Assembly: GCA_017501665.1 (NCBI GenBank)
Contig: JAFVWM010000038.1
Coordinates: forward strand, 69,252 to 133,251
Direction of reading: 5' to 3'
DNA length: 64,000 nucleotides
Source: Alphaproteobacteria bacterium
GTDB lineage: Bacteria; Pseudomonadota; Alphaproteobacteria; RF32; CAG-239
Both the position numbers and the translations under genes were made by a program. Below the pieces are notes generated by a model that saw only the letters and a list, made by a program, of their open reading frames with translations, did not search any database and was not told the DNA's origin. Numbering within the stretch: position 1 is the first letter of the stretch; every line of letters starts with the position of its first letter. This document shows positions 31,094-58,069 of the stretch, piece by piece.

Positions 31094-31537
31094 ATGAAAT
31101 ATTTTGCTTTTGCCATAGGTTTATTTGCTATTTGTACCATTGCCGTAGCACAAGAAAACGATATGTTACAAACCGAGCTGGAGGAAGAATATTATCAAAG
31201 GCTTAATGCCTCACCGGACAAATCACGAATATACATTTTTTTTAATAACGAGCCATGTCCTAATTGTCCGCAAGCTATTGAAATGATTGAAGAAGCATAT
31301 AATCAAAACTATCTCAACAACTATGAACTTTTTTTGATAAACTATGATGAAGATGCCAATTCAGGCTTTATTGAGGAATATAATTTGACTAATCCTTTAG
31401 AGGTGGTGATGGTTGATATTGAAAATGCGACTCCGATAGGTTTTCAAAAAATTGAGGGTTTGCAAAATATGATTAATAATCCCGAAGCTTTTAATCAGTT
31501 TTTTACCACACAGGTCAACGGATATTTACAAAATTGA
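31094..31537 (+). CDS. Secreted thioredoxin-like protein.
   Basis: Signal peptide 'MKYFAFAIGLFAICTIAVA' and a 'CPNCP' redox-type motif. Confidence 0.5.
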   Translation: MKYFAFAIGLFAICTIAVAQENDMLQTELEEEYYQRLNASPDKSRIYIFFNNEPCPNCPQAIEMIEEAYNQNYLNNYELFLINYDEDANSGFIEEYNLTNPLEVVMVDIENATPIGFQKIEGLQNMINNPEAFNQFFTTQVNGYLQN

Positions 31538-31836: not shown

Positions 31837-33675
31837 ATGAAAAAATTATTATTATTCATTGTTGCTATAACGATAGTTATGGCAACAGCTTGTCGCCACC
31901 CACTGAATGATCCATTTGGCGAGTGGACAAAATTGGAAGGCAACGAGGAGTTGCCAACAATAGTTGATACCGTATCAATTGTTGATACAGTGTCAATTGT
32001 TGATACAGTGTCAATTATTGATACTATCTTTATCGACAATGTTATAGTCATAGACAGTATCATATACATCACTGTTACAGACACTGTTACAGTGATTGAT
32101 ACAATTAACAATGAAATAATCATTGTTGATACGGTATTTGTCGAGACAGTCTTCGACTGTTTCGGAATCGATAGAAACGGCTATATTGTTGCCACGTCAA
32201 CCGACGGTGACGATTATACGATTTCGTATAATGTTACGGTCGACGTGACCGGTGACGTGTTCTTTGATCAGCCGAGCGAAGAGCCGTTTACGTTGGATAA
32301 ACAATCATCATTATTTGAGAATGATCACGCTTACTTCAAAGTAAGTAAGGGCGATCAAGAGTTTAATCTTCCTGTATATGTCAGGGGAGCGAACTCAGTT
32401 ATCATCAATGATGAATTGGTTAAGCCGTGTAATCCATTTTCTGTATCGGCAAATGTAAATCCAAAACCGGATACTGAAATTGACGGAGAATTGTACGAAA
32501 CTGCTGAGGTTACGTATGTATTCCGAAACGGAGAAAATGTGCCTATCGCCACGGCGTTACAGCGCGTTTATGCGCCAAAACCAGAGGGCGAAGAACCGGA
32601 AGATCCGGAAGAACCGGAAGAGCCGGAGAATGAAAGAATAGTTACAATTGAACACAGCACACAAGGAGGTGTGTTGGTTGTAACAGGCGTTATCGACAAC
32701 ACTATTTATGGTGACACCATTGCAGAGGTAATGATACCATTATCTTTGGCATTGGAATGCCAAAATAGAGTTGTTGTTGAAGGAAATTCTTTCAACTTCA
32801 GCTTGAACGGAAGTTGTTTCTCTGTCAACAAACAAGTTTTGAACTCACTCCAAAGTGAGAACAATGGAATGGTTGTTGAGTATGAGAATGTCGAAGAAAC
32901 ATTCCATCAAGATTACACTGCTTGCGGAAACATTGTGACTGCCGAGCAAAAAGTTTTTTATAATAACAACTTTAAAGTGAATTTTGGTGGAGAAACAAGA
33001 GATATAGTGATACCTCTTACAGTTTCTTCCGGAGCACCAACACTCGGTTCAACCGAAGTGATAGAAAATGAGGCACATAAATTAGCAACAGTGCCTTATA
33101 CTGCAACAATGGCAGAAATGACGGCATCAGCTTCGCAAGAAGTTGAGATGATTATTAGAGCGATAAGCTTTGATGGTCAAAGAGTCGTTGAAGCATATAG
33201 AACACTGTCAACAAACAGCCATACAAGTTGGTTCGTTTATGACTGCGTTTTAGCAGTAACGAATGATGGTGCCGACCATTACTATCACTATCGTGAGATA
33301 GTTAATGGTGTTGAAGGAGCATGGATTTCCGAGAAATTAACCGATGAAAATTATGCCTTTATTACCAATAAGGCATATTTCAACGGTCACGGGAAATATG
33401 GTTTAGCCATATACTATCATAAAAATTATAGTGGACCTTTCGTTGGTGTTGTAACCGACGACATCGGAGGTTCCTATAATGAGGTCGTCTATCACGCCTT
33501 CGGCAAGGAGCAGAAAACCGTTACGGCATCTCGTTTTGCAGTATTCGGTGAGTTAAATACGGCAATCGCAGGTTCATCGGTTGAGGAAAATGGCCTCATC
33601 AAGATGACCTGTCAGGAAGTAACATTAAATGAGACTCAGGTACTTTCGAATGCCGGAACAGTTTATTTTTATTAA
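31837..33675 (+). CDS. Putative lipoprotein with N-terminal (IVDTVS)n and Ile/Val/Asp/Thr-rich repeats and a (PEEPEE) acidic linker.
   Basis: Lipobox 'IVMATAC'; 612-aa ORF; no recognised homology. Confidence 0.55.
   Translation: MKKLLLFIVAITIVMATACRHPLNDPFGEWTKLEGNEELPTIVDTVSIVDTVSIVDTVSIIDTIFIDNVIVIDSIIYITVTDTVTVIDTINNEIIIVDTVFVETVFDCFGIDRNGYIVATSTDGDDYTISYNVTVDVTGDVFFDQPSEEPFTLDKQSSLFENDHAYFKVSKGDQEFNLPVYVRGANSVIINDELVKPCNPFSVSANVNPKPDTEIDGELYETAEVTYVFRNGENVPIATALQRVYAPKPEGEEPEDPEEPEEPENERIVTIEHSTQGGVLVVTGVIDNTIYGDTIAEVMIPLSLALECQNRVVVEGNSFNFSLNGSCFSVNKQVLNSLQSENNGMVVEYENVEETFHQDYTACGNIVTAEQKVFYNNNFKVNFGGETRDIVIPLTVSSGAPTLGSTEVIENEAHKLATVPYTATMAEMTASASQEVEMIIRAISFDGQRVVEAYRTLSTNSHTSWFVYDCVLAVTNDGADHYYHYREIVNGVEGAWISEKLTDENYAFITNKAYFNGHGKYGLAIYYHKNYSGPFVGVVTDDIGGSYNEVVYHAFGKEQKTVTASRFAVFGELNTAIAGSSVEENGLIKMTCQEVTLNETQVLSNAGTVYFY
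31969..32040 (+). repeat. 18-nt tandem repeat (3.5 units) inside the lipoprotein gene.
   Basis: 'gttgata c(c/a)gt(a/g)tcaatt' x3, then 'attgatactatc'. Confidence 0.8.
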
Positions 33676-33741
33676 TGTTTATTAACCAACCGACCGCTTG
33701 CAAATTTGTTTTGTGAGCAGGTCGGTATAAAACTAAAAAAA

Positions 33742-34863
33742 ATGAGTAAAAAATTTATAATAGCGCTGATTATAATTATCGGCGCAACAAATAATTTGTT
33801 TGCCCAAAGAGGTAGACAAGCAGGCAATGGCAATAGAAACTTACGTGAAAACAACGCCACAACACTCCTTGGAGTGAACGGCGTTTATAAACAAAACGGC
33901 GACAGCGCTTTTGGCGCCGGATTAAGTGTAACCAATCTTTATGATTGGTTCCACTTCGGAACATCTGTTGATTATTCAAAAGGATGTTTCGCCGGCAAAT
34001 TCCAAATCGGACCAGCTATCTGGTTTGGAAATTTCTACGGAGCTCTTTCCTTAGACATGGGCTTAGCTCAATGTCTAAGAATTGAAGAATACGTCAATGA
34101 GAATACTCTTGACGTATTCAAGACGAGAACTCCGGCGCCAAAAATGACGCTGGGCGGATCGGTTAGAATGGGATTCGTTTTTGAGCGCGTTGGTATCCAA
34201 GCAAGAGTATCTTATGACAATGCAAACGGATACAAACGCGGAACGATGTTGGGAGAGCCTTGGGTCTTAAGATCCAGCATCGAAAACGAAAATATTATCA
34301 CCGCAGAACTTGGCATAAGCCTTGTTTTGGGAAGTAACGAAATTCGATACTCCGGTGATAATTGTTATGAATTTAGTGGTTTCGGAGGAATATCGTCTTA
34401 TGGCGTATTTTTCGGTTCGGAACTGCTTAAGTTTGAAAGAACCGGATACTCGGTCGGTCAAAGCTATGGCGGTTTTGCCAGTTTCTATTTAGGAAACGGT
34501 AACGCCGAGCTTGGTGGCAAATATATGTTTAATTGGTACCCCGGCGGTTCCAATAGCATATATACCGGCTCTATTGGTGCTGAGTTGGCCATGGGTCAAT
34601 ATAAGCGTCAATGGAATGGTGCTGCCGACGATCCCGAGCGTTTTTCTGTCAAAGCACGTAATTATGCGTTTGGCGGACGCTTTGCCGGTGTTGTAGAACC
34701 TGTTGCGTTACAGCTGGGACAATTTAAGGTCTCGGCTTTCGGAAGCATCGGCTATGCCGTATGGATTCCTGTAAAAGCAACTGGAAACCTCGGCTATGAG
34801 ACATCATCCGAAAATTCCGGTTTATACTGGAATATGGGAGCAAAGCTGTCGATAGCCTTATAA
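33742..34863 (+). CDS. Secreted Gly/aromatic-rich protein, probably an outer-membrane beta-barrel.
   Basis: Signal peptide 'MSKKFIIALIIIIGATNNLFAQ'; alternating beta-strand-like segments with many G, Y and F residues. Confidence 0.5.
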   Translation: MSKKFIIALIIIIGATNNLFAQRGRQAGNGNRNLRENNATTLLGVNGVYKQNGDSAFGAGLSVTNLYDWFHFGTSVDYSKGCFAGKFQIGPAIWFGNFYGALSLDMGLAQCLRIEEYVNENTLDVFKTRTPAPKMTLGGSVRMGFVFERVGIQARVSYDNANGYKRGTMLGEPWVLRSSIENENIITAELGISLVLGSNEIRYSGDNCYEFSGFGGISSYGVFFGSELLKFERTGYSVGQSYGGFASFYLGNGNAELGGKYMFNWYPGGSNSIYTGSIGAELAMGQYKRQWNGAADDPERFSVKARNYAFGGRFAGVVEPVALQLGQFKVSAFGSIGYAVWIPVKATGNLGYETSSENSGLYWNMGAKLSIAL

Positions 34864-34945
34864 TACAATCCCTTAAAAAAAAGAGCTGACACGTTATGTT
34901 GTCGGCTCTTTTTTTTGTTTTTGTGATACAATATAGTAATATTTT

Positions 34946-37900
34946 TTACCATGCATCGTCGTAAGGCAAGCTTGGGTCGTTGACTTGCTTGGCCCAGCCT
35001 TCACCTTTACCGGCGTTTTCGAGGGTAGGGTCAACAGGTTCTCTATTCAAAGTATTAGGATCGCGAAAAGTGTTAGAATTCAGCTGGTTATAATTTAGGA
35101 CAGGGCTTTCAATGTTATTGGAATCCCATCTGTTACCTGCGGTGGGCGCAAAAGCGCAATAAGTGGTAACGATAGAAGCCATTTCGTGGGCGTATACAGG
35201 AAAGATGTTCCAGTGTAATGCATCAGGGTCGGCACCATAGAGTCCTGTATCATCGAGAAGATCTGTATAATCGTTCGGTTTATATAAGAAACCCATTAAA
35301 ATATGCCAGCCATCTGTGCTACCATCGGAGCTATCGTGAGGTAAAACAGAAGAATTTAGCCATGTATTTGTTTGAAAAGTTATTGGTGTTGCCGAAGTTT
35401 TATGTTTGTGCGGGGTTGTCGTGGCTAATTCCTCTTTAATACTGAAAAAAGCTTCTTTGGGGTTGTGATGTTTTTTGAAATAATAGGAGAATCTTTCATC
35501 AGCGGTAGGTGGTGTATCGCTTTCATCCATTTGAGATTTTAAGTCTTTGATAATTATGTTGTATTTTTTCTCGTCCAAAATATCCTCAAGATCGTTATCT
35601 TGATCGTCGTCGATGTCATGTAAATAGTAAACTTCGGACATACGCCATCTGATAGGGTTATTAGTGACAACTGCTAAATAATGTTCAGGGCATTGTGGTT
35701 TAGGGACAAATCCCAACCAAGGCGATGCCACGCAATCGGCATTTTGGCAAGAATATATTTCGCAATCAGGATTTGGTGTTCCTGTATTATCTATTGGTAC
35801 GCAAGATGTGTTACCAGTGACGTTATTTGCTTTAATGACGCCGGCCTTTACTGCGCCTTTTTCTATCGGTATTACATCCCAGATGAGAGCATCGCTATTT
35901 AGTCCGGATACCCACTCGTTCTGTATATTGAAACCTTCATTTTCAGAATAACCTGCATGATAAGTGTTATCCCCGACGTAGATGCCTTTTATGATATAAT
36001 CGGATAAAATATCACTAAGACGAGCACCGCCTCGTGAGGCCAGTTTTATATCATTCATAATAGAGGTATAGGCAGGGTTTACCTGATAGTAATCGTAAGG
36101 ATGCGCTACATCGTGTCCATCATATGTAGCTCCATCGAAGTGCGGATGATCATAATAAGGAATATCACTGACTAAACGTCGAGCGCGGATAAAGCCGGCT
36201 TTAGTACCGTCATTAGCTCCTGATGTTCCGTAGTCGGAAGGTGGGGCAAGTTCAATGTAGCCGTTGCGGGAAATGATAACTTTTTGATTACTTTGTGGGG
36301 TTAAAGGATTAGTGATCGGATTGTCTCTGTTTCCACCACTGTCTGTTAAATTTTCACCTATGGCAAGACCGCCATTGTCAAGGAAAAAATCTGCTGCACT
36401 AACCCTAAATTTATCAGTATTAAGCTCGAAGTTATCGCTATCAACTGTTAATTTGTTCGAAGCGTCCAAAAATAGCGATGCAGTGGTATCAGGACTATCA
36501 GTACTGTTTTTGCTAAAACCAAAAGTTTCAGGGCTAAGAAAGAGCTTAGTATACATATCATTGTTGTTGCCAGATTCAATGTAAGTATCTCCTGAATTAA
36601 TTGCCAATCTATCTTTTCCATTATGTTTTAACTGAGCGACCGGGGCTCCTGATTTTTTTATAATAAACTGGGTATCATCTGTTTTCATGCTAATAGAATT
36701 GTTTGTAGCATCAGAGATAAATTCTCCTGCATTAGATCCTAATCGGGCAAAGGTTTTGTTGTCAGGATCATTAGACAATTCCATAAAAACATTGCCAGTT
36801 GGATTTTTCAATAAAGTTTGATTTTCGGTCATAGAAAGTTGGGATCCTGCTGAATTTGCTATGTTAACGTTAAATTCGCTACCATTGAAAGAAGCTTTAT
36901 CACTGTTAACATTAAATGTGTTGCTGTCAACCTTCATTACTGATGGGCTATCGGGGGTGTTACCGACGGTTAGTTGGGTTTCGGCATGTAAGTTGTTGGA
37001 AATTAAAGTTCCCTCTATGGTTAGATCACCACCAACAGTTGCATCGTTAGTGACGGCTAAGGATGTAAGATCGGTTTCACCGGCAGACAGTTCGTTTAAT
37101 TTTGTGGCGCCGGTAACATCTAAGGTTGAGTCGAGAGTTGTGGCGCCGATTACCTTTAAGGTTGAGTCGAGAGTTGTTGCTCCGTCAACATCTAAGGTTG
37201 ATTTGAGAGTTGTTGCTCCGTCAACATCTAAGATTCCTTTAACAGATGCATCGGCCAAGGTTGTTAATCCGGTTACATTTAAGGTTGATCCGAGAGTTGT
37301 GGCGCCGCTTACCTTTAAGGCTGAGCTGAGAGTTGTATCGCCGCTTACCCCTAAGGTTGAGCTAATCTTGGCTGCACCCTTAACAACCAAATTATCACTA
37401 TCATCACTACCTATTGTAAGTTCTCCGCCTTGACCGAATAATGCATTGATGTCTTGGATGTCATGGCTTCCCATTATCAAATTGGTTTCCATAGTATTCT
37501 TTACTGGATCATCATCATTAACACGATAGAGTAATTTTGAAGTATTGGCGGTGGCTGATTCGGCAATCGCCTCATTAGAAATAGACATCAATGAACCGGT
37601 CTTCAAATCAGTCGAAGGGACCTCAAACCATTCTTGCGGATTAGCACGCCATGCACCTTGCGCACCCACAAACCTATCTTCTTTTATCGTACCGCCGTTA
37701 ATGCCTATCATTGAAGCAATTTTGGAAGCACGATTGAATGTTATCGGATTGAGTGACGGGGCTAAAACAGCTGTTGTGTATACACTGCGCGTTTTACCGG
37801 TCATATCTGTATCATCTTCACGCTTTATCGAAAATTTTAAATTATTGGCATCAAAATATTTTGACTGCGAAAGATTGAAACCCGCCGGCAAATAAGCATT

Positions 37901-38188
37901 TACCCCTTTCACAATATCATTGGAAGAGTCTGTTGCAGTTACGATTTCATACTCTCCATTATCAACCAAGGTCGGAAGATCGTTATAGTTGTTGCGTACA
38001 TAATTATCCAAAGCCTCATTTAGTGTACGCATTTGAGTTGCAATGTTAATATCTTGTAACTCGGTGGTACGCTCTGCGGCTTTTTTGTACATAACAGGTG
38101 TAACCATCGTAATAAGCCCGAGCAAAGCCAAAGCTTCAACCATTAAGCTACCTCTTTGCAAAACTTTATACATATCTTGTTTTTTCAT
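34946..38188 (-). CDS. Giant (1080 aa) protein with a type IV prepilin-like N-terminus, a beta-helix-like repeat region and a C-terminal Cys-containing globular domain; possible pilin-fused adhesin.
   Basis: N-terminal 'MKKQDMYKVLQRG|SLMVEALALLGLITMVTPV' has a short basic leader ending in Gly, Glu at +5 and a 20-aa hydrophobic helix. This is a class III (prepilin peptidase) signal. Repeats of the 'GATTLDSTLDVTG' type occur at about aa 280-370. Confidence 0.6.
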   Translation of the reverse strand: MKKQDMYKVLQRGSLMVEALALLGLITMVTPVMYKKAAERTTELQDINIATQMRTLNEALDNYVRNNYNDLPTLVDNGEYEIVTATDSSNDIVKGVNAYLPAGFNLSQSKYFDANNLKFSIKREDDTDMTGKTRSVYTTAVLAPSLNPITFNRASKIASMIGINGGTIKEDRFVGAQGAWRANPQEWFEVPSTDLKTGSLMSISNEAIAESATANTSKLLYRVNDDDPVKNTMETNLIMGSHDIQDINALFGQGGELTIGSDDSDNLVVKGAAKISSTLGVSGDTTLSSALKVSGATTLGSTLNVTGLTTLADASVKGILDVDGATTLKSTLDVDGATTLDSTLKVIGATTLDSTLDVTGATKLNELSAGETDLTSLAVTNDATVGGDLTIEGTLISNNLHAETQLTVGNTPDSPSVMKVDSNTFNVNSDKASFNGSEFNVNIANSAGSQLSMTENQTLLKNPTGNVFMELSNDPDNKTFARLGSNAGEFISDATNNSISMKTDDTQFIIKKSGAPVAQLKHNGKDRLAINSGDTYIESGNNNDMYTKLFLSPETFGFSKNSTDSPDTTASLFLDASNKLTVDSDNFELNTDKFRVSAADFFLDNGGLAIGENLTDSGGNRDNPITNPLTPQSNQKVIISRNGYIELAPPSDYGTSGANDGTKAGFIRARRLVSDIPYYDHPHFDGATYDGHDVAHPYDYYQVNPAYTSIMNDIKLASRGGARLSDILSDYIIKGIYVGDNTYHAGYSENEGFNIQNEWVSGLNSDALIWDVIPIEKGAVKAGVIKANNVTGNTSCVPIDNTGTPNPDCEIYSCQNADCVASPWLGFVPKPQCPEHYLAVVTNNPIRWRMSEVYYLHDIDDDQDNDLEDILDEKKYNIIIKDLKSQMDESDTPPTADERFSYYFKKHHNPKEAFFSIKEELATTTPHKHKTSATPITFQTNTWLNSSVLPHDSSDGSTDGWHILMGFLYKPNDYTDLLDDTGLYGADPDALHWNIFPVYAHEMASIVTTYCAFAPTAGNRWDSNNIESPVLNYNQLNSNTFRDPNTLNREPVDPTLENAGKGEGWAKQVNDPSLPYDDAW

Positions 38189-38200
38189 AACGCACCTACC

Positions 38201-38896
38201 TTACAGCTTGCTGACATATGCAATACATGAACCGTTGTAATTTGTATTACAATTAGCCGATATTTCATTCCACATATCATCAGGAATTGTATACACGGGT
38301 GTTCCCTGATAATTTATAATTTCTTTTTCTTCACCGTTTTCTCTTATATAACCGACCCATTCATCATACCCGAAGTGATTTCTGAAAGCCTTTATTACAT
38401 CATCGTTCGGCGTAACCACAGTTTTTTCGGTACCTCCAGCAGTAGCAATTTCTTGTGTGGCCAGCCACCTTATATGCAAATCGCCATATGTGATCAAAAG
38501 TCTTGTTTTTGGGTTATCAGTAACATCATGACACTCATCTGCATGAGATTCGTCCTTGTTGTAACAAAAAATTTGTGATGTATACTCCTCACTACGCACA
38601 AAACCGTTGGGAATATAATCATCCAATTCTTCAGGGTCTATAGAACCCGGAGTAAATCCAATTCGTTTATCTGGATCGCACTCTGTAACAGTGTCGCCTT
38701 CAGCAGTACCGGCGCAATAATACGGCCATTTCAATTTTCTGGCATATTTTAATGCAACTCGATGATTTATTACCATTTTAACCATATGTGCCGACGCCAC
38801 CGGAACATTAACTTTTTCCGGAGTGTCGGACCTCATCGGCAATGAATATCCCGCCAAAATAGCCAAAAACGTAGATAATACCAGCCACATATACAT
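38201..38896 (-). CDS. Hypothetical Cys-containing exported protein, co-directional with and immediately upstream of the giant prepilin-like gene.
   Basis: N-terminal hydrophobic segment 'MYMWLVLSTFLAILAGYSLPM'; 13-nt gap to the downstream gene. Confidence 0.45.
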   Translation of the reverse strand: MYMWLVLSTFLAILAGYSLPMRSDTPEKVNVPVASAHMVKMVINHRVALKYARKLKWPYYCAGTAEGDTVTECDPDKRIGFTPGSIDPEELDDYIPNGFVRSEEYTSQIFCYNKDESHADECHDVTDNPKTRLLITYGDLHIRWLATQEIATAGGTEKTVVTPNDDVIKAFRNHFGYDEWVGYIRENGEEKEIINYQGTPVYTIPDDMWNEISANCNTNYNGSCIAYVSKL

Positions 38897-39095
38897 GTTT
38901 TATGCCCTACAAATTAAACATTATACTTCATTATAACATAAAAATTATTTCAATAATGTTAAATTTTGCTTTTTTTTAATTTATTTCATTTTTTTTTGTT
39001 AAAATATTTAATAACTGACAAATTTACGTTTATTTATAAAAATAATGAGCTAAAATATGCAAAAATAATGTTGGGTGTTAATTTAGTCGGATGGT

Positions 39096-41728: not shown

Positions 41729-44308
41729 TTGATAAAGGCAAAGTATATTTTAATTTCTTTTTTTACCGCCGGTGTTTTGACATTCGGTAGTTTGCCTGCG
41801 ATGTCTCAAGAAATAATAGGAGAAAATTCCTTTGGTATAAATGTTTCCGATATTGAAACAGACAGAAATTTTGTAGAAGCTTTTAATGACGGGGATGAAG
41901 CTGTTGATGATGTTGAAAAAGATGAAATTGTCAGCCTTAGGTTTGTTTGGAATACACCTGTAAATATGGCCAGTTTCGTTAGAAATGGAAAAATTTGGGT
42001 CGTTTTTGATCATCAAAATAAGTTTGATATAGACGTTTTGAAAGCAGAAGCCGGAGCCATGGCAAAAGAAATATATTATCTGTTTCATCCGGATGGCGCT
42101 ATTATTGTTATTGAACCGGAAGATGGTGTGAAATATGCTGTTCGTAAAGAAGGTTTGTTGTGGATATTGGATTTATATAAGGGAAAACCACCGGCGTTTA
42201 AGGTTAATAATTATACAATTTTTACTCAATTTGACAGTTTGAAAAATTCATATTTGTTTATTCCTATTCAAGATGCCGGAAAGGTTCTGTCCTTTATGGA
42301 TCCGGAATTGGGTGATATTATTACAGTATCGACGACTTCGGTTTTGGGGCAAGGTATTGATGCTACGTATAGATATGTTGATTTTGATGTTTTGCGCTCT
42401 TTACAAGGTGTGGCTTTTGTTTTTAACAATTCGGATATTGTCTTAAATCGCGGTAATTCCGGTATTACCTTAAAGGCAATAGGTAGAGGCCTTAATATTT
42501 CGGATGATTTGAGCAGTTTAAAACGTAGTAAGTTTTTTTCGGCAAGCTCAAAGCCTTCGGTGGATAAAGTTTTTGACCTGCAAATACCGTCGTCTTTGGC
42601 CAGACAGAGCTTTGAAAAAGTTACCGAAAAATATAAAAATCAAATTGTGGCGGCGAAACATAGTGAAAAAAACGATATAAGATTACAGTTAGCTAAGTAT
42701 CTTATATATAATGGTTTGGGTACGGATGCTTTGTTTATCTTAAATCAAATGAAAAAACTGAAAATTCCCGAATCTCAAACGGATACTTTTTACGCTCTTT
42801 CAGGAATTGCTAATTTTTTAGCTCGCAGGTATGACGAGGCTATAAGCGATTTTTCACAAGGAAATATACCTCTTAGTGATGAGGGAGCTTTTTGGAGGAC
42901 AATTGCTAAATCGGCTAAACAGTACAGTGAAGAAAATAATGCCATAATATTTGCTCATGTCTCGCTGATGAAAGACTATCCACAACCGATTAAAGATCAA
43001 ATATCTATAATTGCTGCTGAAAATGCCATTGAAACAGGTGATGATATTACTTCGCAAAACTTTATTGATATTTTAGATTCCGTGCAAGAAAGATTAAGAA
43101 ATTTGGATCCCCAAATAACATATTTGAATGCAAAAAAACTTGAAATGCAAGGATATGTGCGCAATGCCGTTAAAGAATATAAAAAACTGAAGGATATTGA
43201 TTCTGCAATGTTTTCGGCATATGCTCGCTTGCGATATACAGTGCTGAGTGAAAATCTTAAATATATGGAAACAAAGGAAGCCATTGCGGAATTGGAAAAA
43301 CTGCGATTTGCTTGGGGGGAGAAAGAATTTAAAATTAATGTTTTGAACCATTTGGCAAAACTTTATTTGAAAAACAATGATTATTATAATACGTTAAACG
43401 TCTTGAATGATCAAGGATTTTTAGTAGATGATGAGCAACGAAAAGGTGTTGCCGAACGCATGGTTAAAATCTTTGAGGATGTTTTTGTTTCTAATCATGC
43501 GGATAGCATTATATCTCCTGTAAAAGCGTTGGCTTTGTTTCAGGATTTTAAATGGTTGGCTCCGTTAAGTAAAATACACTATAAAATTGTTCAAAAATTG
43601 GCAGACAGATTAGTGGCGGTTGATTTGTTGCCTCGTGCACAATCATTGTTGTTGTCGTTACTATATAAACAAGATTTATCTCAAGAAGATCAAGCTAAGG
43701 TCGGGGCTCGTTTGGCGATAATTTACTTGTTCGAAGGGAAGGCTTCTGATGCTTTACTCGCTATTGAAGCAACAGATTTTTCAAATATTTCGGATACTCT
43801 CAAAAGTCAAAGAAATATAATAGCATCGCGTGCTTTGTCCGATATGGGGCGTGTTGATGAAGCATTGGCTCTTATTAAAGATGATTTCAGCGCACAGGCT
43901 ATTGTTCGTAAATTTGAAGTATACTGGAATGCAAAGGATTGGGATAGTGCTTCTGATACTATAAAGTATCTGATAGAAGAGCCTGTGCCGGGTAAACCTC
44001 TGTCAAACGAACAAATGAATTATATCTTAGACTGGGCAACTACATTAAAACAAGCAGGAAAAGAGACTGTTTTGGTTCGTTTAAGAAATAAATTTGCTCA
44101 ATATTTTGAAGGTACTGCACATCAGAGTGCATTTAACGTTCTTACAAAACATTTGGATGAAGATAAGATTGATGTCGGTGCGATAAAAACCGTAATTTCC
44201 GATATTAAGAATTTTAATGATTTTGCAAGTTTTTATATTGGGAAACTTGAGCATGAACCACAAAAAGAAAATTCTGAAAAACAACCTAAAAGTATAATCG
44301 GCAAGTAA
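41729..44308 (+). CDS. Large exported TPR-like / alpha-helical repeat protein of unknown function.
   Basis: Signal peptide 'MIKAKYILISFFTAGVLTFGSLPAMSQ'; 859 aa; it follows the flagellar genes and ends 1 nt before uvrB. Confidence 0.45.
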   Translation: MIKAKYILISFFTAGVLTFGSLPAMSQEIIGENSFGINVSDIETDRNFVEAFNDGDEAVDDVEKDEIVSLRFVWNTPVNMASFVRNGKIWVVFDHQNKFDIDVLKAEAGAMAKEIYYLFHPDGAIIVIEPEDGVKYAVRKEGLLWILDLYKGKPPAFKVNNYTIFTQFDSLKNSYLFIPIQDAGKVLSFMDPELGDIITVSTTSVLGQGIDATYRYVDFDVLRSLQGVAFVFNNSDIVLNRGNSGITLKAIGRGLNISDDLSSLKRSKFFSASSKPSVDKVFDLQIPSSLARQSFEKVTEKYKNQIVAAKHSEKNDIRLQLAKYLIYNGLGTDALFILNQMKKLKIPESQTDTFYALSGIANFLARRYDEAISDFSQGNIPLSDEGAFWRTIAKSAKQYSEENNAIIFAHVSLMKDYPQPIKDQISIIAAENAIETGDDITSQNFIDILDSVQERLRNLDPQITYLNAKKLEMQGYVRNAVKEYKKLKDIDSAMFSAYARLRYTVLSENLKYMETKEAIAELEKLRFAWGEKEFKINVLNHLAKLYLKNNDYYNTLNVLNDQGFLVDDEQRKGVAERMVKIFEDVFVSNHADSIISPVKALALFQDFKWLAPLSKIHYKIVQKLADRLVAVDLLPRAQSLLLSLLYKQDLSQEDQAKVGARLAIIYLFEGKASDALLAIEATDFSNISDTLKSQRNIIASRALSDMGRVDEALALIKDDFSAQAIVRKFEVYWNAKDWDSASDTIKYLIEEPVPGKPLSNEQMNYILDWATTLKQAGKETVLVRLRNKFAQYFEGTAHQSAFNVLTKHLDEDKIDVGAIKTVISDIKNFNDFASFYIGKLEHEPQKENSEKQPKSIIGK

Positions 44309-47826: not shown

Positions 47827-48049
47827 TTTATTTTCCTTTAATATGTAGTATATTTTTTTGAAAAAGCCGTGACGCTGTCAACTGTCGCTTAATGACAAAA
47901 AATAAATACCAAATGTTATAACAGCTTTACAAAACCACAGATAAAATAAAAAAACAACCCTAAAATATGTTTATGCAAAAATCTCTAATAAAAATAAAAA
48001 ATATTCTTGCATTTAACAAAAAAGATATGTATAAGAATTTTTAGATTAT

Positions 48050-48136
48050 GCGCTTGTGGCGGAACAGGTAGACGCTGCAGACTTAAAATCTGTTGGCCGC
48101 AAGGCCGTGCCGGTTCGATTCCGGCCTAGCGCACCA
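48050..48136 (+). tRNA. tRNA-Leu (anticodon UAA), class II with long variable arm and encoded CCA.
   Basis: D-arm 'ggcggaacaggtagacgc', anticodon loop 'cuUAAaa', long variable arm 'gttggccgcaaggccgtgcc', T-arm 'ccggttcgattccgg', 3' 'gcacca'. There is one mismatch in the acceptor stem. Confidence 0.85.
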
Positions 48137-48283
48137 TTTAAAAAAGTCCTCTTTATGAGGGCTTTTTTAATTGGTATGATATATCAGAGTATCGAAGCGG
48201 CACGGTGCCGGTTTGAACCGCAGTTCGCAGGCGAACGGAGTGCGCCGGTCAAATTTTTGAGCGAACAAGGTCGGCGAAGCCAT

Positions 48284-48338
48284 TCCGGCCTAGCGCACCA
48301 ATTTGGAGAGGGTTGGCAAAATTTTTTGCTAACCCTTG
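48284..48338 (+). repeat. Direct repeat of the last 18 nt of tRNA-Leu, fused to att-like repeat A; the left boundary of the island stack.
   Basis: 'ttccggcctagcgcacca' is identical to tRNA positions 48119-48136. It is followed by 'atttggagagggttggcaaaattttttgctaaccct', an imperfect hairpin. Confidence 0.8.
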
Positions 48339-48627
48339 ATTTTTAAGGCTTTGCGTCGGTTCGATTGATTTCAAACGGTTACAAATTGTAACGGTTTGTT
48401 ATTTTAGAACGTTTTGCTAGTGTCAGCAAAACGATATTCCTTCCTTTTAATTATGGCGAATTTTCTACAATTAACTCAAACATATCGAATTCGACACCTT
48501 TAAGATTAGAAAAAATCCCCATACAAAATCAAACAAATTTTAATTTTTGGTTGAATTTCAAAACGTTTTACTTTAGCCTCAAGGTATTGTTATCTCCTAA
48601 ATTTAGAGCTAAAATATAAAAGATATA

Positions 48628-49734
48628 ATGAGGACACAAATGGCTAAAAGTAAAATTATGAAAAAAAATAAAAAAGAAGTTATTTATGAAGATAAATTAA
48701 ATTTATTTAAATTAAAACTTCAAGAACTAACAACTGTAGTACAAATTTATAATCCAACAAGTTCCATACTAGACATAAAGTTAGTTGATATCATAGATGA
48801 GTTAGATTTAGATAATACTGAATACTTTACTATTTCCTACTTTTATAATGGGTTAAATAAAATTTCTAGAATATTAGAAGGAAACCCCAACGACATTCAC
48901 TATACATTATGGGTTATAGTTTGCGCAACTTATGAAAGATTCTTAAAATTTAATGATTCAAAAATTTTTACCTATTTTGAAAAACTTTATTCCGGAAAAT
49001 ATTATTATAAAATATTTTCAAAAGGGAGTGGTACGACACAAAAAATGCTAGAATTACAAGCGGAGGAAAAGCGCTTTATTACAGAGAAATTAGCATTTTT
49101 GATAAATTCTAAAAAAATAAACGATATCATAGAACGCATAACAAATCCTGATGATAAGTTTATAACAATGTGCGATAAGTTAGATTCAAAAGAAAAAAGT
49201 ATTGATTCTAAGTTAGAAAAATATCAAAACCGAGCAAATGAAATTGTTAAATTCATAAAAGAACAACAAACAAAATTAAATTTTGTAGGGTTAGGTAGTG
49301 CCTTTAAACAAATAACAAAAGAAAAAAATACTGTTAAAAATAATTTAGAAAGTTACTTATTTATTACTTTCATAATATTAATAGTTATTCCTTTATCTAC
49401 AGCTATTGCAATTTTCTGTTGTGGCAAACCCAATTACTATATTTATATTCCTCTTGTAACGATAGAGCTTCTTCTGTTGTATGCGTTTAGATTGTTCTAT
49501 CAACAATATATGTTTATAAAATCAGAACTACTTCAAGTTAATTTAAGACACAGCTTATGCGCCTTTATTGAGTCATATATGGAGTTTAAGAAAAATAATA
49601 AAGATAACACAGTTGATTTATTTGAACAACTTATCTTTAGCAATATTATATCTGATGAAAAGAAAGTTCCTGCAACGGTTGATGGTTTAGATAGTATTGC
49701 AAATATAATACAATCAATTAAAGGTAGAACATAG
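48628..49734 (+). CDS. Hypothetical protein with an N-terminal soluble coiled-coil-like domain and two C-terminal TM helices; first gene of the island.
   Basis: Extremely AT-rich and Lys/Ile/Asn-rich. TM helices 'YLFITFIILIVIPLSTAIAIF' and 'IYIPLVTIELLLLYAFRLF'. No recognised motif. Confidence 0.5.
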   Translation: MRTQMAKSKIMKKNKKEVIYEDKLNLFKLKLQELTTVVQIYNPTSSILDIKLVDIIDELDLDNTEYFTISYFYNGLNKISRILEGNPNDIHYTLWVIVCATYERFLKFNDSKIFTYFEKLYSGKYYYKIFSKGSGTTQKMLELQAEEKRFITEKLAFLINSKKINDIIERITNPDDKFITMCDKLDSKEKSIDSKLEKYQNRANEIVKFIKEQQTKLNFVGLGSAFKQITKEKNTVKNNLESYLFITFIILIVIPLSTAIAIFCCGKPNYYIYIPLVTIELLLLYAFRLFYQQYMFIKSELLQVNLRHSLCAFIESYMEFKKNNKDNTVDLFEQLIFSNIISDEKKVPATVDGLDSIANIIQSIKGRT

Positions 49735-49857
49735 AACTATTGCAAAAAATTTATTGGAATAAATTATATTTCTTATAAAATTGATGAAAAACTTGATTCT
49801 TTCATAATAAGTCAGTAAATTGACGTAATCTATAACACAAGTTTGTGGGCCTAAAGT

Positions 49858-51153
49858 ATGACAAAAATAAAAAAAGAAATTACTGAAGATAATGAAAAAA
49901 TAAAGAAGGCAAGAGTGGCTGTCCAAAAAAAGGGTCTTAAACTTTCCAATGGGGAAATTATTGAAGAAAAAATATCATCACAGACATGGAAAGAAAAAGA
50001 ATTTAAATATCCTACTAAAACAATTCGAATTGGAACATGTTTTAGTGGTATTGGTGCAATTGAACACGCTTTTCAACGATTGAGATTAAACCATAAAATA
50101 ATATTTGCTGGTGACATTGATGAAAACTGCCGCAAAAGTTACTTAGCAAATTATAAGATATCTGAAGATGATTGGTTTTCTGATATCAGAGATTTCGATG
50201 CAAAAAGATATAAAAATAAAATAGATTTTTTAATAGGAGGAGCTCCATGCCAAGCATTTTCAATGGTCGGTAAAAGATTGGGGTTTGAAGATGCAAGGGG
50301 AACTTTATTTTATGAATTTGCAAGAATCATAAAAGAGACTCAACCAAAAGTTTTTCTGTTTGAAAATGTTAAAGGAATGCTAAATCATGATAACGGGAGA
50401 ACATGGAAAATAATTCACAGTATTTTTGAAGAGCTCGGATATGACATACATTTTCGTGTCTTAAATAGTAAAGATTATGGAATTCCTCAGCACAGAGAAC
50501 GTTTGTATTGTTTGGGGTTTAAGAAAAAAAGAAAATTTTTATTTCCAGCCCCTATAAAACTAGAATATACAATGTTTGATTTTTTAGAAGATTATGCAGA
50601 TTCAAAATATTTTCTAAAAGAGAAAGGCATAAAATTTGTAACTAGTCATAAAAATAAAACAAAATGCTACACTCAAATAAATGGAGACATAGCACTTTGT
50701 CAAAAAAGAAATCAAGAATTTAATTGGCACGGAGATTTTATCTTTCACCCTATTGATGAAAGTATTGATAATGAACAATATGATGAGTTTGTTTTTAACG
50801 TAAAAGATGTTGAAGAAAAATATTATCTATCTGAAAAAGTTGCAAAATATGTTTTAGCAGGAGGAACAAAAAACTTCAAGACATCTACTAAAACTGATTT
50901 AGAAATAGCTCGCCCATTATTACAAACAATGCATAAAATGCATAGGGCAGGTGTTGATAATTATGTAACTCATAACAAAGGAAGAATTAGAAAGTTAACA
51001 CCAAGAGAATGTCTAAGGTTAATGGGATTTAAAGATAGTTTTAATATTGTAGTTTCAGATACTGCGACATATCAACAAGCTGGAAATAGTATAGTTGTTG
51101 ATGTTCTTATAGCTTTGTTAAGACAGTTAGATATAACGGAATATGGTGTGTAA
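49858..51153 (+). CDS. DNA (cytosine-5)-methyltransferase.
   Basis: Motif I 'FSGIGA', motif IV 'GGAPCQAFS', motif VI 'ENVKGM', motif X 'QAGNSI'. Confidence 0.9.
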   Translation: MTKIKKEITEDNEKIKKARVAVQKKGLKLSNGEIIEEKISSQTWKEKEFKYPTKTIRIGTCFSGIGAIEHAFQRLRLNHKIIFAGDIDENCRKSYLANYKISEDDWFSDIRDFDAKRYKNKIDFLIGGAPCQAFSMVGKRLGFEDARGTLFYEFARIIKETQPKVFLFENVKGMLNHDNGRTWKIIHSIFEELGYDIHFRVLNSKDYGIPQHRERLYCLGFKKKRKFLFPAPIKLEYTMFDFLEDYADSKYFLKEKGIKFVTSHKNKTKCYTQINGDIALCQKRNQEFNWHGDFIFHPIDESIDNEQYDEFVFNVKDVEEKYYLSEKVAKYVLAGGTKNFKTSTKTDLEIARPLLQTMHKMHRAGVDNYVTHNKGRIRKLTPRECLRLMGFKDSFNIVVSDTATYQQAGNSIVVDVLIALLRQLDITEYGV

Positions 51154-52174
51154 TATGATTATAAATGATACTAAATTCAAGATAGTAGATACATTTGATA
51201 ATTTTATGACTGTTCCTGATTGTTTTGTAAAAAATCCAAACAAAATAGGAAGTGGTAATGGAGAAGCAAAATTTTACATTTCAAATAAAGATGAAATGAG
51301 AAGATTTTATGGAGGGGAAGGCTTTACAAAAAAATGTTTTTTATTAAAACAGGATTTAATAAACTATATGATAGCCGTAAAAAATGAGTATATTACACCG
51401 TCCCAAGATTATAGAAACAAAGAAGAATTTCCTACTTTATGGGATAAACGGATGTCTTTAATCAATTCCCAACCTGATGTTATAATGTTTGATATTATTG
51501 ACCAAACTCAGATTGAAGGACCTAGAGGATACGTTAACTCTAGGGATTTTGGATATGAACTCATACGAACAATAGCACTTCCTTTAATCTCATATTTGTC
51601 TGCAATGGAACTAAAGGATAAGAAAGGGGCAACATTGTATTATTGGAAATTATTTGCTGATTTTGAAGCTATTGCACAAAAAAAATGTGAACCTCTTGTT
51701 TTTAGTTACGGTAAGAAGAAAAGAGAAAACGATGAAGAAGACAAAGATAGTGAAATAATTTTACCACTAGAAACCCCGCAACAAAAAGAGATAAGATATG
51801 CAAGAAATGGACAAGGCAAATATAGGGAAACACTATTAGAAGAATGTCCCTTTTGCCCTATTACAATGATAAATGATGAACGTATACTAATTGCTAGCCA
51901 CATAAAACCATGGGCTGCGTCAAATGATAAAGAAAAAATTGACCCTCAAAATGGCTTCATGCTTTCACCATTATATGACAAACTATTTGATAGAGGTTTT
52001 ATAACATTTACAAACGATAGAATCTTACATATTTCAAAATGGATATCACCTAAGAATATTCAGCGAATGGGACTAAAAGATAAGATGTTTATACAGCAGC
52101 TGCCTTTAACTAAAGAACGTTGTTGTTACTTAGATTTTCATATATCATCGGTCTTTCATGGAATAATTGAATAA
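51143..52174 (+). CDS. HNH-family endonuclease, the candidate type II restriction enzyme partner of the MTase.
   Basis: 'CPFCPI...HIKPWAASNDKEKIDPQNGFMLSPLYDKLFDRGFITF' is an HNH-type motif. The gene overlaps the MTase by 11 nt. Confidence 0.65.
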   Translation: MVCNMIINDTKFKIVDTFDNFMTVPDCFVKNPNKIGSGNGEAKFYISNKDEMRRFYGGEGFTKKCFLLKQDLINYMIAVKNEYITPSQDYRNKEEFPTLWDKRMSLINSQPDVIMFDIIDQTQIEGPRGYVNSRDFGYELIRTIALPLISYLSAMELKDKKGATLYYWKLFADFEAIAQKKCEPLVFSYGKKKRENDEEDKDSEIILPLETPQQKEIRYARNGQGKYRETLLEECPFCPITMINDERILIASHIKPWAASNDKEKIDPQNGFMLSPLYDKLFDRGFITFTNDRILHISKWISPKNIQRMGLKDKMFIQQLPLTKERCCYLDFHISSVFHGIIE

Positions 52175-52564
52175 CAAACAAATACAACAGATAAAAGAGC
52201 GGCATTTTATGATGTCGCTCTTTCTAGTTATGTATATGCATAACTTCACCCTTTCAAGCAATCTTTACCTTAAATAGTATTGATTACGAATGTTTTGTTT
52301 TGCTTGATATATCAAGCATTCTGTTAAAAAGCAATTTGCTGCAATATAGCATACATCTGCAGGTGTCCTAGCTTGAGTAAAATCATAGCACGTTTTTGCT
52401 CTTGACACCCAAGATAGTACAGTTAACAATTCTAACACATTTCTCAACCTCCAATCAGAACCCTAGACTTGATATAACACAACAACATATTGTGTTTTAT
52501 CGGATTCGTAATACATTATATTGAAATAAATTTAGATTGTCAAATTAGCGAAGTCTAATATTTC

Positions 52565-53095
52565 TTAGGCATTGGTCACATCTCCCATCATCCTCTCCAC
52601 ATCCTCCAAATCAATACCTTTTGATGATAAAACAGACATCAAGGTTTCTAGTGCGTTTTTGTAGCTATCTCGCTCATTTTCTAATGATTTGATACGGATT
52701 TGAGCCTCGTTTAGCTCATTTTTATAGTAGTTTGCCCATTGCTCTTGGTCTTGGGCATCGTGTTTTAGCATATTCTTTTCAATGTTGCCCATATTAACAC
52801 CGTCTAGAGGCATAAATTCGCGTCCGGAGAGCGATAATTGTCTTCTGCCCTTATCATCACAGTTTTTTATCAAATAACCCTCTCTGACGAGTTTATTAAC
52901 CATAACTTTGGTTGATGAAGTTTTACAACAAATCGCCTTTGCCAATGTCTCGTTATTCATGAAAAATTTGAAGTTGCGATTGGTTTTATAACCGATATAT
53001 GTTAAAATTAAACGCTCTGTAATAGTGAGCTTTCTTTGTCTTTCACTCATTTTAATTCCTTTAATATGTATTTTAACATGAGTATTTATCGGCAA
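52565..53095 (-). CDS. Winged-helix DNA-binding protein, a putative iteron-binding autoregulator or replication-initiator-like protein.
   Basis: 'LTITERLILTYIGYKTNRNFKFFMNNETLAKAICCKTSSTKVMVNKLVREGYL' looks wHTH-like. A C-terminal coiled coil is present. The iteron array lies immediately upstream. The start may be at 53050 (MSERQRK). Confidence 0.5.
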   Translation of the reverse strand: MPINTHVKIHIKGIKMSERQRKLTITERLILTYIGYKTNRNFKFFMNNETLAKAICCKTSSTKVMVNKLVREGYLIKNCDDKGRRQLSLSGREFMPLDGVNMGNIEKNMLKHDAQDQEQWANYYKNELNEAQIRIKSLENERDSYKNALETLMSVLSSKGIDLEDVERMMGDVTNA

Positions 53096-53130
53096 ATTTT
53101 ACGCTTTGTAATTTTAACAAAAAATGCTGC

Positions 53131-53274
53131 GGAAATGAATATTTCCACCTAAAATCGCAGCGGAAATGGATATTTCCACTAAAACGCCAAATGGAAATGA
53201 ATATTTCCGCTATCGGAAACGGTTATTTCCGTAGGTGGAAATGGATATTTCCGTAAGCGGAAACAGATATTTCC
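53131..53274. promoter_or_regulatory. Array of six 16-bp imperfect palindromes 'GGAAA(T/C)NNNTATTTCC' (iterons or operators).
   Basis: Units start at 53131, 53162, 53193, 53215, 53237 and 53259 (see finding at 52565-53290 for spacing and sequences). Confidence 0.75.
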
Positions 53275-53632
53275 GCCGCACTTTGCTGAAACTGTTGATA
53301 CACAAGGAATTGAGAGCTGTTTTTTGCTCCTATAATATAATTATAATAGAAATAAAATAGCTATTATAATAGCAAAATTTGTTTTGATTAAAATACAAAA
53401 CCAAAGGAAATCAAAGGGATTTAACTCACTTAAAATAAAAAAAGTGCAATAGGAATACCCATCGCACTTATTTGTTAAAAAACATATTAATGAAGTAAAA
53501 GGCAATATTTAACTTCACATGTATTTATCGGTTAATTAAGCGAATTTGTTAAAATAAAAAATTACAAGTTGTAATGATAAATACATTTGTAATGAAGAAA
53601 AAGGAGCAAATATATTCGGCTACAATGCGATA

Positions 53633-53827: not shown

Positions 53828-53888
53828 GCCCATTAAATCATAAATTCTCCTACAAAATCGCTACTTTTAATGAAGTGGCGGTTTTGTT

Positions 53889-54449: not shown

Positions 54450-54482
54450 ATCATAATCCTTTCTTTAATCACATCTTGTGAT

Positions 54483-54575: not shown

Positions 54576-54591
54576 ATTTACTTGCTGAAAC

Positions 54592-55769: not shown

Positions 55770-55773
55770 CCAA

Positions 55774-58013: not shown

Positions 58014-58069
58014 ATATTTGCTCCTATATTTTTTACCGATTTTATATTATCAAGACAAAAAGTAAATAT

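Follow-up and report, generated by a model that had tools for sequence, protein, structure and literature searches.

Some type IV pilins are modular, and PilC and Thermus ComZ follow the same principle as PilB of Streptococcus sanguinis. PilB, at least in the outline given in PMC8179133, joins a pilin module to a functional one that the filament displays. The large minor pilins CofB and TcpB are type IVb initiators of the ETEC CFA/III and Vibrio cholerae TCP systems, respectively; in CofB, beta-rich domains follow the pilin domain towards the C-terminus, and the protein is a homotrimeric initiator at the pilus tip (PMC6048534). The Kil/Tad pili of Myxococcus carry multi-pilin tip clusters, some of which are encoded away from the machinery genes (PMC12075869).

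The 64-kb window (64,000 nt, the whole stretch of DNA analysed) encodes a pair of proteins that invites comparison with these systems, a giant protein and a small partner. Like CofB and TcpB, the giant protein has a pilin-like domain, as predicted, followed by beta-rich C-terminal domains. It differs in being two to three times larger (1080 aa, with family members of up to ~1300 aa) and in lacking sequence similarity to either protein; moreover, its stalk is made of tail-fibre-like 12-residue repeats, and it is paired with a leaderless pilin-like protein. Its gene also lies outside a pilus operon, with no major pilin or assembly gene adjacent in any locus, and in gut Alphaproteobacteria, whereas CofB and TcpB belong to enteric Gammaproteobacteria. 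The modular pilins PilB, PilC and ComZ differ from it in that their modules are vWA, lectin or beta-solenoid inserts, they are encoded in pilus loci and they are much smaller.

Organisation of the gene pair

34946-38188, minus strand: giant gene, an ORF of 1080 aa
38201..38896, minus strand: partner gene, an ORF of 231 aa, encoding a leaderless pilin-like paralogue
38930..38963, minus strand: conserved promoter-like element upstream of the partner gene
34874-34917, no strand assigned: hairpin terminator with an 18-bp stem and T/A runs on both sides

The ORF list bears out both genes as the sequence-only reading described them. The two ORFs lie on the same strand with 12 nt between them, and a Shine-Dalgarno-like element, GGTAGGTG, precedes the second start. 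Downstream, the terminator separates the giant gene from a convergent gene of 385 aa. Of 86 loci, 84 have the partner gene immediately upstream of the giant gene and in the same orientation, and the two genes stay paired in every context examined, distant lineages included.

Alignment of the upstream regions of many loci on the start codon revealed the promoter-like element, TTTAAyAnAwTwGAAA followed by an extended -10 motif, TGTGyTAyAAT; the version in the window reads TATGTTATAAT. Among 61 intergenic regions between fliL and the partner gene, 31 contained the extended -10-like motif and 28 the upstream motif; nearly all occurrences of either lay on the strand of the partner gene. This element is unlike the conserved fliL promoter motif. 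A promoter of the flagellar regulon was considered for the pair and rejected, as sigma-54, sigma-28 and CtrA consensus patterns each matched only 0-3 of 78 upstream regions.

The prepilin-type N-terminus and the partner protein

38150..38188, minus strand: leader peptide, residues 1-13 of the giant protein (MKKQDMYKVLQRG); its last residue is the invariant Gly-1
37991..38149, minus strand: predicted alpha1 helix (residues 14-66), SLMVE(+5)ALALLGLITMVTPVMY and then the invariant KKAAERTTELQDIN
37424..37990, minus strand: globular portion of the pilin-like domain, residues 67-255; YLPxGF, RASKIASMIGANGG and GVQGxW are its conserved motifs

The giant protein begins with a basic leader of 13 residues that ends in Gly13, places Glu18 at +5 and has a single hydrophobic segment, residues 14-34. 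This motif was present in 179 of 185 family sequences, and among the motif-bearing members Gly-1 and Glu+5 were each found in 179/179 and Ser+1 in 177/179. Distant members vary at +1 (S, T or G) and keep Gly-1 and Glu+5. The family leaders are ~11-13 residues long, basic (K/R) and variable (34% identity), with a pre-cleavage consensus of [Q/E][K/R]G. Because Gly-1 and Glu+5 are kept across the motif-bearing family, the N-terminal motif is not a product of chance, and the class III prepilin-type signal proposed from the window alone holds family-wide in its features. Within the window, G-x4-E followed by a hydrophobic run occurs at the N-terminus of one ORF only. By inspection, Ser+1, Leu+2 and Met+3 of the giant protein depart from the classical N-methylation pattern, PROSITE PS00409.

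The alpha1 helix is the most conserved part of the protein, with a mean pairwise identity of 81% compared with 82% for UvrB and 78% for FliM from the same loci; the remainder stands at 23-49%. Strong conservation of alpha1 in an otherwise fast-evolving protein is the usual pattern of type IV pilins. An alternative is that the N-terminus is an uncleaved signal anchor, which would make the giant a bitopic protein of the inner membrane that carries a large beta-rich domain in the periplasm or at the surface, its likeness to pilins being superficial or very ancient. No Pfam or NCBIfam pilin model matched the window protein, nor did any match at E<=1 in 38 family members, and no pilin was found among PDB sequences with the N-domain profile. 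The conservation of alpha1 reaches well past the membrane segment, into KKAAERTTELQDIN, which would be unusual for a mere anchor, and the buried Glu5 after an invariant Gly, preceded by a short, basic and variable leader, is the defining prepilin pattern. We therefore regard the anchor as quite improbable. An ordinary Sec signal peptide was rejected by inspection, given the conserved Glu in the hydrophobic core, the lack of a small-x-small site and the highly conserved charged helix that follows.

Structure prediction points the same way as the motif. In the AlphaFold model, residues 5-66 form one continuous helix, and residues 1 to ~210 adopt a predicted pilin fold, with the long N-terminal helix packed on an antiparallel beta-sheet. 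TcpB and CofB were among the best structural neighbours of this predicted N-domain, which bears out the likeness to large minor pilins that had been suggested earlier. A Foldseek search of the PDB with the full-length model returned no significant match. Overall, the giant protein resembles a type IV pilin over its first ~250 residues and, beyond them, a fibre with a conserved end domain.

The partner begins directly with a hydrophobic helix (MYMWLVLSTFLAILAGYSLP), without Gly-1 and without Glu5. Its family alignment has invariant M1, Y2, W4, L7, R22 and D24, together with four invariant cysteines (C111, C122, C216 and C224, the last two in a C-terminal C-x7-C loop); the MY[IL]W start recurs in partners of distant lineages. 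Profile alignment by hhalign related the partner to the N-domain of the giant protein with a probability of 88% and an E-value of 2.7e-6, pairing partner residues 38-103 with giant residues 50-108, and the YLPxGF motif is common to both. The two are offset by 12 positions in this alignment, one fewer than the 13 residues of the leader, which sets partner Met1 opposite Gly-1 of the giant. On this profile evidence, the partner is a leaderless, Glu5-less paralogue of the giant's pilin-like domain. Its gene does lie directly upstream on the same strand, as had been described, but the earlier view of it as just an exported protein gives way to that of a leaderless pilin-like paralogue. Pfam, NCBIfam and PDB sequence searches with the partner gave no match, and we know of no minor pilin that, like the partner, lacks a leader and cleavage site.

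The stalk and the C-terminal region

36287..37423, minus strand: beta-rich, hypervariable stalk (residues 256-634)
37046..37363, minus strand: tandem 12-residue repeats GATTLxSTLxVx, ~8 copies, with a 36-bp DNA period
34949..36286, minus strand: C-terminal region, residues 635-1080, containing islands of strongly conserved motifs

Across the family the length of the stalk is held within 340-414 aa, and its sequence is unconserved. In the giant protein, 8 copies of the repeat occupy residues 283-381, with an autocorrelation of 0.41 at lag 12, and 36-bp tandem repeats are found in the DNA at 37102-37232 and 37260-37363. The repeats described in the sequence-only reading are thus present, with these protein and DNA periods. 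Their likening to autotransporter passengers did not hold up, as they match phage tail-fibre, VgrG or bactofilin-type beta-helix repeats instead. The family profile matched the phage tail-fibre protein 9cuy_g (E 4e-6) and PHROG families 36281 (E 5e-8), 697 ('structural protein') and 11338 ('tail fiber'). Bactofilin identity was rejected, because the weak Pfam matches, seen in 9 of 38 members, reflect the beta-helix repeats only.

These matches liken the stalk to phage tail fibres and central spikes, which are trimeric beta-helices, and raise the question of whether the giant derives from a phage tail fibre or is an autotransporter-like, beta-helical adhesin secreted through Sec, with an N-terminus that is hydrophobic by chance. 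The likeness to phage proteins is limited to ~150 repeat residues. No relative of the family was found in 2.9 million IMG/VR viral contigs, and phage genes flanked the pair in no locus examined; a phage origin was rejected on these two grounds. As for secretion, no autotransporter, TPS or other secretion Pfam domain was found, and by inspection no signal-peptidase I site follows the hydrophobic segment, which carries the conserved Glu. Either form of this explanation is very hard to credit.

In the monomer model, the stalk looks like single sheets, and monomer models of trimeric fibres tend to come out in this form. The tail-fibre-like repeats would be compatible with, and do not specifically indicate, a homotrimer of the CofB/TcpB type.

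The C-terminal region, at 49% identity, is better conserved than the stalk and the globular pilin part. Its conservation is concentrated in the islands YDYYQVNPAYTSxMNDIKLxxRGGARLSDIL, CxxxxCxASPWLGFVPxPQCP, PIRWRMSE, TFQTNTWLN, GWHxxMGFLY and WNxFPVY, and in an invariant C-terminal NDPxLxYxxxW. To describe this domain as Cys-rich, as was first done, overstates the case, since the whole 1080-aa protein has 6 Cys, 4 of them conserved (C814, C819, C833 and C1011). Conserved Cys pairs together with a fast-evolving, repeat-bearing middle would fit an extracytoplasmic, exposed protein. An internal duplication was rejected, the C-terminal region being unrelated to the N-domain or the partner.

Genomic neighbourhood and possible functions

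The two genes form a constant unit across at least 156 species and ~405 clusters at 50% identity, and every named source of the family is a metagenome-assembled genome of an uncultured gut alphaproteobacterium from an animal (human, ruminant, rodent or bird). This large family is wholly unannotated, and searches of the literature on RF32 lineage genomics and pili returned nothing usable. In the window, Pfam or precomputed annotation, which covered most ORFs of at least 120 aa, revealed no T4P, T2SS or Tad gene. None of 86 loci had, within 10 kb of the pair, a prepilin peptidase motif (GxGD[VI]K), a Walker A motif of the PilB/TadA type or a further G-x4-E N-terminus. As regards pilus machinery, the label 'orphan' is therefore apt over both of these ranges, the second of which takes in about 80 related genomes.

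Tad pili are the common type IV filament in Alphaproteobacteria, and the cleavage-site sequence of the giant, G|S-x-x-V-E, resembles that of TadE-type pseudopilins; Pfam TadE (PF07811) gave no match at E<=1 in 38 members. The TadE/TadF/TadG and KilL/KilM/KilN 'Tip' complexes of Tad pili are small clusters of pilin-like proteins, one of them large with a disulfide-bearing distal domain of unknown fold (PMC12075869). The pair likewise comprises pilin-like genes of which one is large; it differs in having two genes rather than three, and in that the small partner lacks a leader, Gly-1 and Glu5.

On balance, we lean towards the explanation that the two type IV pilin-like proteins jointly form the complex that initiates or tips a type IVb or Tad-class filament, with the assembly machinery encoded at another site. 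The class III signal would insert the giant protein into the inner membrane, where prepilin peptidase would cleave it after Gly13, and Glu5 of the mature protein would then pair with the N-terminal amine of the subunit above. The partner starts where a mature pilin starts and has no Glu5, and may for these reasons be the topmost cap subunit, comparable to GspK or PilX-type minor pilins. With its pilin domain buried in the filament end, the giant would hold its C-terminal domain off the cell on a beta-helical stalk that resembles a tail fibre and may be trimeric, as TcpB and CofB are; this disulfide-stabilised domain may bind a ligand. We infer that the giant is probably a TcpB/CofB/TadG-like modular minor pilin that forms the tip fibre and acts as a pilus-tip adhesin.

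We count in favour of a tip complex that the class III features are invariant while the leader and the +1 residue vary, that alpha1 is so well conserved, that the domain layout is that of CofB, that the partner is a paralogue in register with the mature N-terminus, and that the giant and partner remain paired in all contexts, including those without flagellar neighbours. Against it we count the lack of pilus machinery nearby, the lack of a match to any pilin model and a partner with no leader or cleavage site. The conserved C-terminal islands, moreover, would fit a conserved ligand better than the variable ligand usually expected of an exposed receptor-binding tip. If the pair is displayed on a filament, it is an obvious candidate for attachment to mucus, host cells or other microbes. 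If the tip complex is real, the 'modular minor pilin' idea would take in proteins as long as 1000-1300 residues whose stalk resembles a tail fibre, and a partner that lacks both leader and Glu5 would be an unusual kind of cap.

The pair adjoins fliL-fliM-DUF6468-motE and the gene of an 859-aa protein in 65 of the 76 loci with enough flank, with fliO-fliP on the opposite side in a subset. In most lineages its place is between fliP and fliL, and inversion of the pair has occurred at that site. This conserved position beside flagellar genes did not figure in the sequence-only reading. It suggests another explanation: a pilin-fold pair co-opted for a structure other than a pilus, which might be a short stub anchored in the inner membrane or a fibre that spans the envelope, linked in function to the flagellar pole or motor and perhaps independent of a full type IV machine. 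None of the loci has a type IV filament gene next to the pair, a stalk that keeps its length despite sequence turnover behaves as a fixed-length spacer would, the C-terminal islands could fit a conserved self ligand, and a leaderless partner would need no peptidase. There is also a precedent, in that Helicobacter flagellar motors are described, in the outline provided by PMC10823254, as having recruited type IV pilus proteins.

The flagellar linkage itself can be read in another way. The uvrB and ATP-synthase genes are as syntenic with the pair as the flagellar genes are, and the linkage may thus be mere inherited gene order. The remaining 11 of the 76 loci, like the distant lineages examined, have the pair among housekeeping genes with no flagellar neighbour, and the pair has its own conserved promoter-like element, unlike that of fliL. 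To our knowledge, the motor operon occurs in other Alphaproteobacteria without such a pair. The neighbouring operon is an ordinary alphaproteobacterial motor set, including MotE, which forms the E-ring (PMC13023049), and neither the sequence nor the fold of the pair matched flagellar motor accessory proteins (MotE/FlbB of the E-ring and the MotC/MotK/PflA spokes). An invariant Gly-1 and Glu5 are, in addition, difficult to account for unless a peptidase processes the protein and it packs as in a filament. Co-option for a structure other than a pilus thus strikes us as unlikely, if somewhat less so than an uncleaved anchor.

We give similarly low credence to a reading in which the pair works without a conventional pilus: the lineage would have no type IV machinery, and the pair would form a new pilin-anchored envelope or surface fibre, perhaps at the flagellar pole; or else the pair would cap a pilus that contacts other gut microbes rather than host tissue. 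If the lineage indeed has no pilus machinery, the pair represents a new use of the pilin fold.

Rates of divergence also separate the pair from most of its flagellar neighbours, which counts against a shared function with the motor. Identity across the family is 35-39% for the pair, compared with 62-78% for FliM, MotE and DUF6468, 45% for FliL and 50% for the 859-aa protein. Judged by these identities, the pair evolves faster than FliM, MotE and DUF6468, and only modestly faster than FliL and the 859-aa protein.

The gene pair and its N-terminal signal

The giant pilin-like protein and its smaller partner are encoded by two genes separated by 12 nt, with a ribosome-binding-like element (GGTAGGTG) preceding the second start.

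Features of the gene pair
38201-38896 (-), partner ORF, 231 aa, co-directional with the giant
34946-38188 (-), giant ORF, 1080 aa
34874-34917, strong hairpin terminator 3' of the pair

The sequence-only reading had described a class III prepilin signal on the giant, and every element of it was present. The N-terminus, MKKQDMYKVLQRG before the cleavage site and SLMVEALALLGLITMVTPVMYKK after it, has a basic leader, Gly at -1 and Glu at +5, and the hydrophobic segment that follows is the sole one in the whole protein. A scan of all ORFs in the window returned the giant as the single case of G-x4-E with a hydrophobic run near the N-terminus. In a census of 185 family sequences, 179 carried the motif [Q/E][K/R]G, then S[M/L]M[V/I]EALA across the cleavage site, and Gly-1 and Glu+5 were found in all 179; distant members of 1200-1300 aa have Thr or Gly at +1 and retain both residues. 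This pattern is as would be expected of a peptidase site and a filament-packing Glu. An uncleaved anchor with a superficial likeness to pilins would not be expected to hold Gly-1 and Glu+5 fixed while +1 varies, and we regard that explanation as quite improbable.

Neither protein matched Pfam, NCBIfam or a PADLOC-independent curated model. Word-indexed searching recovered at least 838 relatives 950-1110 aa long, all unnamed or 'hypothetical', the named ones from 'Alphaproteobacteria bacterium' MAGs. When 1.84 billion representatives were searched exhaustively with a profile, 405 clusters passed E<=1e-30. Most of the best 150 approach full length (about 830-1300 aa), and some are shorter fragments; scanning one genome per species placed the family in 156 species. 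All 80 kept loci came from animal-gut Alphaproteobacteria or unclassified proteobacteria (human, Hadza, Nepali, rumen, deer, mouse, rabbit and chicken hosts or cohorts), including Proteobacteria bacterium CAG:495, Candidatus Scatocola (Rhodospirillales incertae sedis per NCBI) and 'Azospirillum sp.' UMGS63, and the pair is known only from this uncultured gut lineage. At one locus (L063, CAG:495 scaffold HF995322, 10013-13040) the assembly shows the giant ORF in two parts, of 353 aa and 734 aa, which reflects either an assembly error or a frameshift pseudogene.

Fold, conservation and a leaderless paralogue

Although the full-length AlphaFold model of the giant was mediocre (pLDDT 62.8), residues 40-210 scored 76-90, and a separate model of residues 1-262 (106 sequences) agreed with it in topology: residues 6-66 form a helix, after which come a small antiparallel sheet and short helices. 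The domain is predicted to have a pilin fold, and the large minor pilins TcpB and CofB are among its best structural neighbours.

Fold matches of the giant's pilin-like domain
CofA, 6.3
TcpB, 6.1
CofB, 5.7
XcpV, 5.3
TcpA, 5.2
plasmid PilM, 5.1
EpsI, 5.0
GspI, 5.0

Sequence comparison gave no tie between this domain and known pilins, so membership of the giant in the pilin superfamily rests on motif and fold. What the sequence-only reading observed is confirmed, and its proposal of a tip-located giant minor pilin is supported in part.

Conservation along the giant was uneven.

Mean pairwise identity by region, alignment of 38 diverse members
Residues 1-12, leader, 34%
Residues 13-66, alpha1 (predicted N-terminal helix), 81%
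Residues 67-255, globular N-domain, 42%
Residues 256-634, middle, 23%
Residues 635-1080, C-terminal region, 49%

At the same loci UvrB reached 82%, FliM 78%, FliL 45% and the partner 35%; alpha1 is therefore constrained like housekeeping proteins while the remainder evolves fast, the usual pattern of type IV pilins. The middle keeps a length of 340-414 aa despite its low identity. Motif islands in the C-terminal region are nearly invariant; the region also contains four conserved Cys, and NDPxLxYxxxW at its C-terminus is invariant. To call this end 'Cys-rich' was an overstatement, since the giant has six Cys, four of them conserved.

The partner begins directly in a hydrophobic helix (MY[I/L/M]W..L.TF, with M1, Y2 and W4 invariant), without leader, Gly-1 or Glu5, and has four invariant Cys, including a C-x7-C loop immediately before the C-terminus. 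Profile-profile comparison matched it to the N-domain of the giant (88% probability, E 2.7e-6); the 53-63 aligned columns lie outside the membrane segment, and a YLPxGF motif is common to both proteins. The register is offset by 12, such that partner Met1 aligns with Gly13 (-1) of the giant, one residue before the mature N-terminus. On the match, the register and the leaderless start, the partner is a paralogue of the pilin-like domain that comes 'pre-trimmed'. In minor-pilin tip complexes (GspK, PilX-type) the subunit at the very top typically lacks Glu5, and by this analogy we infer that the partner caps the giant.

The giant gene often has a DsbA-like thiol-disulfide oxidoreductase (FFDYSCGYCH) in its neighbourhood, about 5 kb downstream at 38 related loci, and a weak thioredoxin-like 147-aa ORF lies close by in the window (31094-31537). 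Their products may matter for the conserved Cys pairs that both pilin-like proteins carry.

The repeat-bearing stalk

The GATTLxSTLxVxG-type repeats noted earlier were confirmed: residues 283-381 contain eight copies with a period of 12 residues, which appear as 36-bp tandem repeats in the DNA. The region matched phage tail-fibre protein 9cuy_g (E 4e-6) and PHROGs annotated as structural or tail-fibre proteins; 9 of 38 members touched Pfam Bactofilin, and 2 of 38 DUF2345. All of these matches point to putative beta-helix repeats. Relatives were absent from IMG/VR viral contigs, which argues against a phage origin, and a phage-derived or Sec-secreted adhesin is a very remote prospect.

In the monomer model, the middle of the giant forms single-layer sheets matching OspA, phage spikes and VgrG, an appearance that trimeric fibres tend to take when modelled as monomers. 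CofB is a homotrimer (PMC6048534), and this and the model together suggest that the stalk could be a trimer.

On balance, we lean towards the giant being a modular minor pilin like TcpB, CofB or TadG. The giant and its leaderless cap paralogue would make up the tip of a filament of type IVb or Tad class, with the conserved end domain presented on the giant's tail-fibre-like stalk. Compared with known modular minor pilins, the giant is unusually large, the partner is unusual, and machinery was never adjacent in 86 loci.

Gene neighbourhood and pilus machinery

The absence of pilus machinery near the giant was borne out: in the annotated parts of the window all genes are of housekeeping, flagellar or mobile-element type, and scans of the 86 loci found no second class III-like N-terminus, GxGD[VI]K peptidase motif or PilB/TadA-type Walker A. 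In Myxococcus, minor-pilin 'Tip' clusters are separate and far from the machinery (PMC12075869), so this absence is compatible with a pilus.

We called and clustered ORFs across the 86 loci (1.7 Mb). In 84 of them the partner immediately precedes the giant gene. Among 76 loci with enough flank, fliL was divergent within 1.5 kb in 57, fliL or fliM was nearby in 8 more, and the pair was located elsewhere in 11. In most of the linked loci the pair is co-directional between fliP and fliL, indicating an in-place inversion. The adjoining operon, fliL-fliM-DUF6468-MgtE_N protein-859-aa protein, is the motor operon usual in Alphaproteobacteria, which includes the E-ring protein MotE/FlbB (PMC13023049).

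Last gene of the fliL operon
41729-44308 (+), 859-aa protein, signal-peptide-like N-terminus, kept in 66 related loci

A Pfam search of the 859-aa protein gave no match, including no TPR; by position it is probably a TPR partner of MotE of the MotC/MotK/PflA type.

That the pilin fold serves a structure independent of any pilus, possibly at the flagellar pole, is an unlikely reading. Both uvrB and an ATP-synthase operon were as syntenic with the pair as the flagellar genes. Three distant members (1253-1303 aa) have no flagellar gene near the pair, whose neighbours there are housekeeping genes (ligA, truB, pnp, zapA, BatD). Upstream of the pair is a conserved promoter-like element of its own, with an extended -10 and distinct from the conserved fliL promoter, and sigma-54, sigma-28 and CtrA consensus sequences were essentially absent upstream (0-3 of 78 regions each). 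We conclude that the two-gene cassette is a conserved functional unit for which a flagellar neighbourhood is frequent, not obligatory.

The fliL promoter motif (window ~39000-39050 (+) and related loci) is strongly conserved, TTTAATAAsTrACAAATTTrCGTTTATTTATAAAAATAATnnGCTAAAATA; the partner gene is preceded by a different motif, which likewise starts TTTAATA. On the side away from fliL, the cassette adjoins at 45 loci a gene for a conserved secreted 248-aa protein that matches nothing in Pfam (for example, L055, 13206-13952). In the window, 31837-34863 (+) encodes a 612-aa lipoprotein (MKKLLLFIVAITIVMATAC), with 18-bp (VDTVSI, 31958-32024) and 9-bp (32590-32627) tandem repeats in its gene, and then a 385-aa protein rich in Gly and Tyr, with the look of an outer-membrane protein; the two genes are convergent with the giant gene and are confined to the closest relatives (L001, L002). 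A 1328-aa ORF at 1228-5214 (+) belongs to no Pfam family, and the contig collection holds no identical protein. The stretch from 48000 to 64000 is low in GC (27-33% versus about 36-42% elsewhere) and looks like a mobile or defence island, encoding a DNA methylase and HNH endonuclease (49858-52174), a GIY-YIG protein, several GNAT acetyltransferases and a HipA toxin with an HTH partner (58867-60039).
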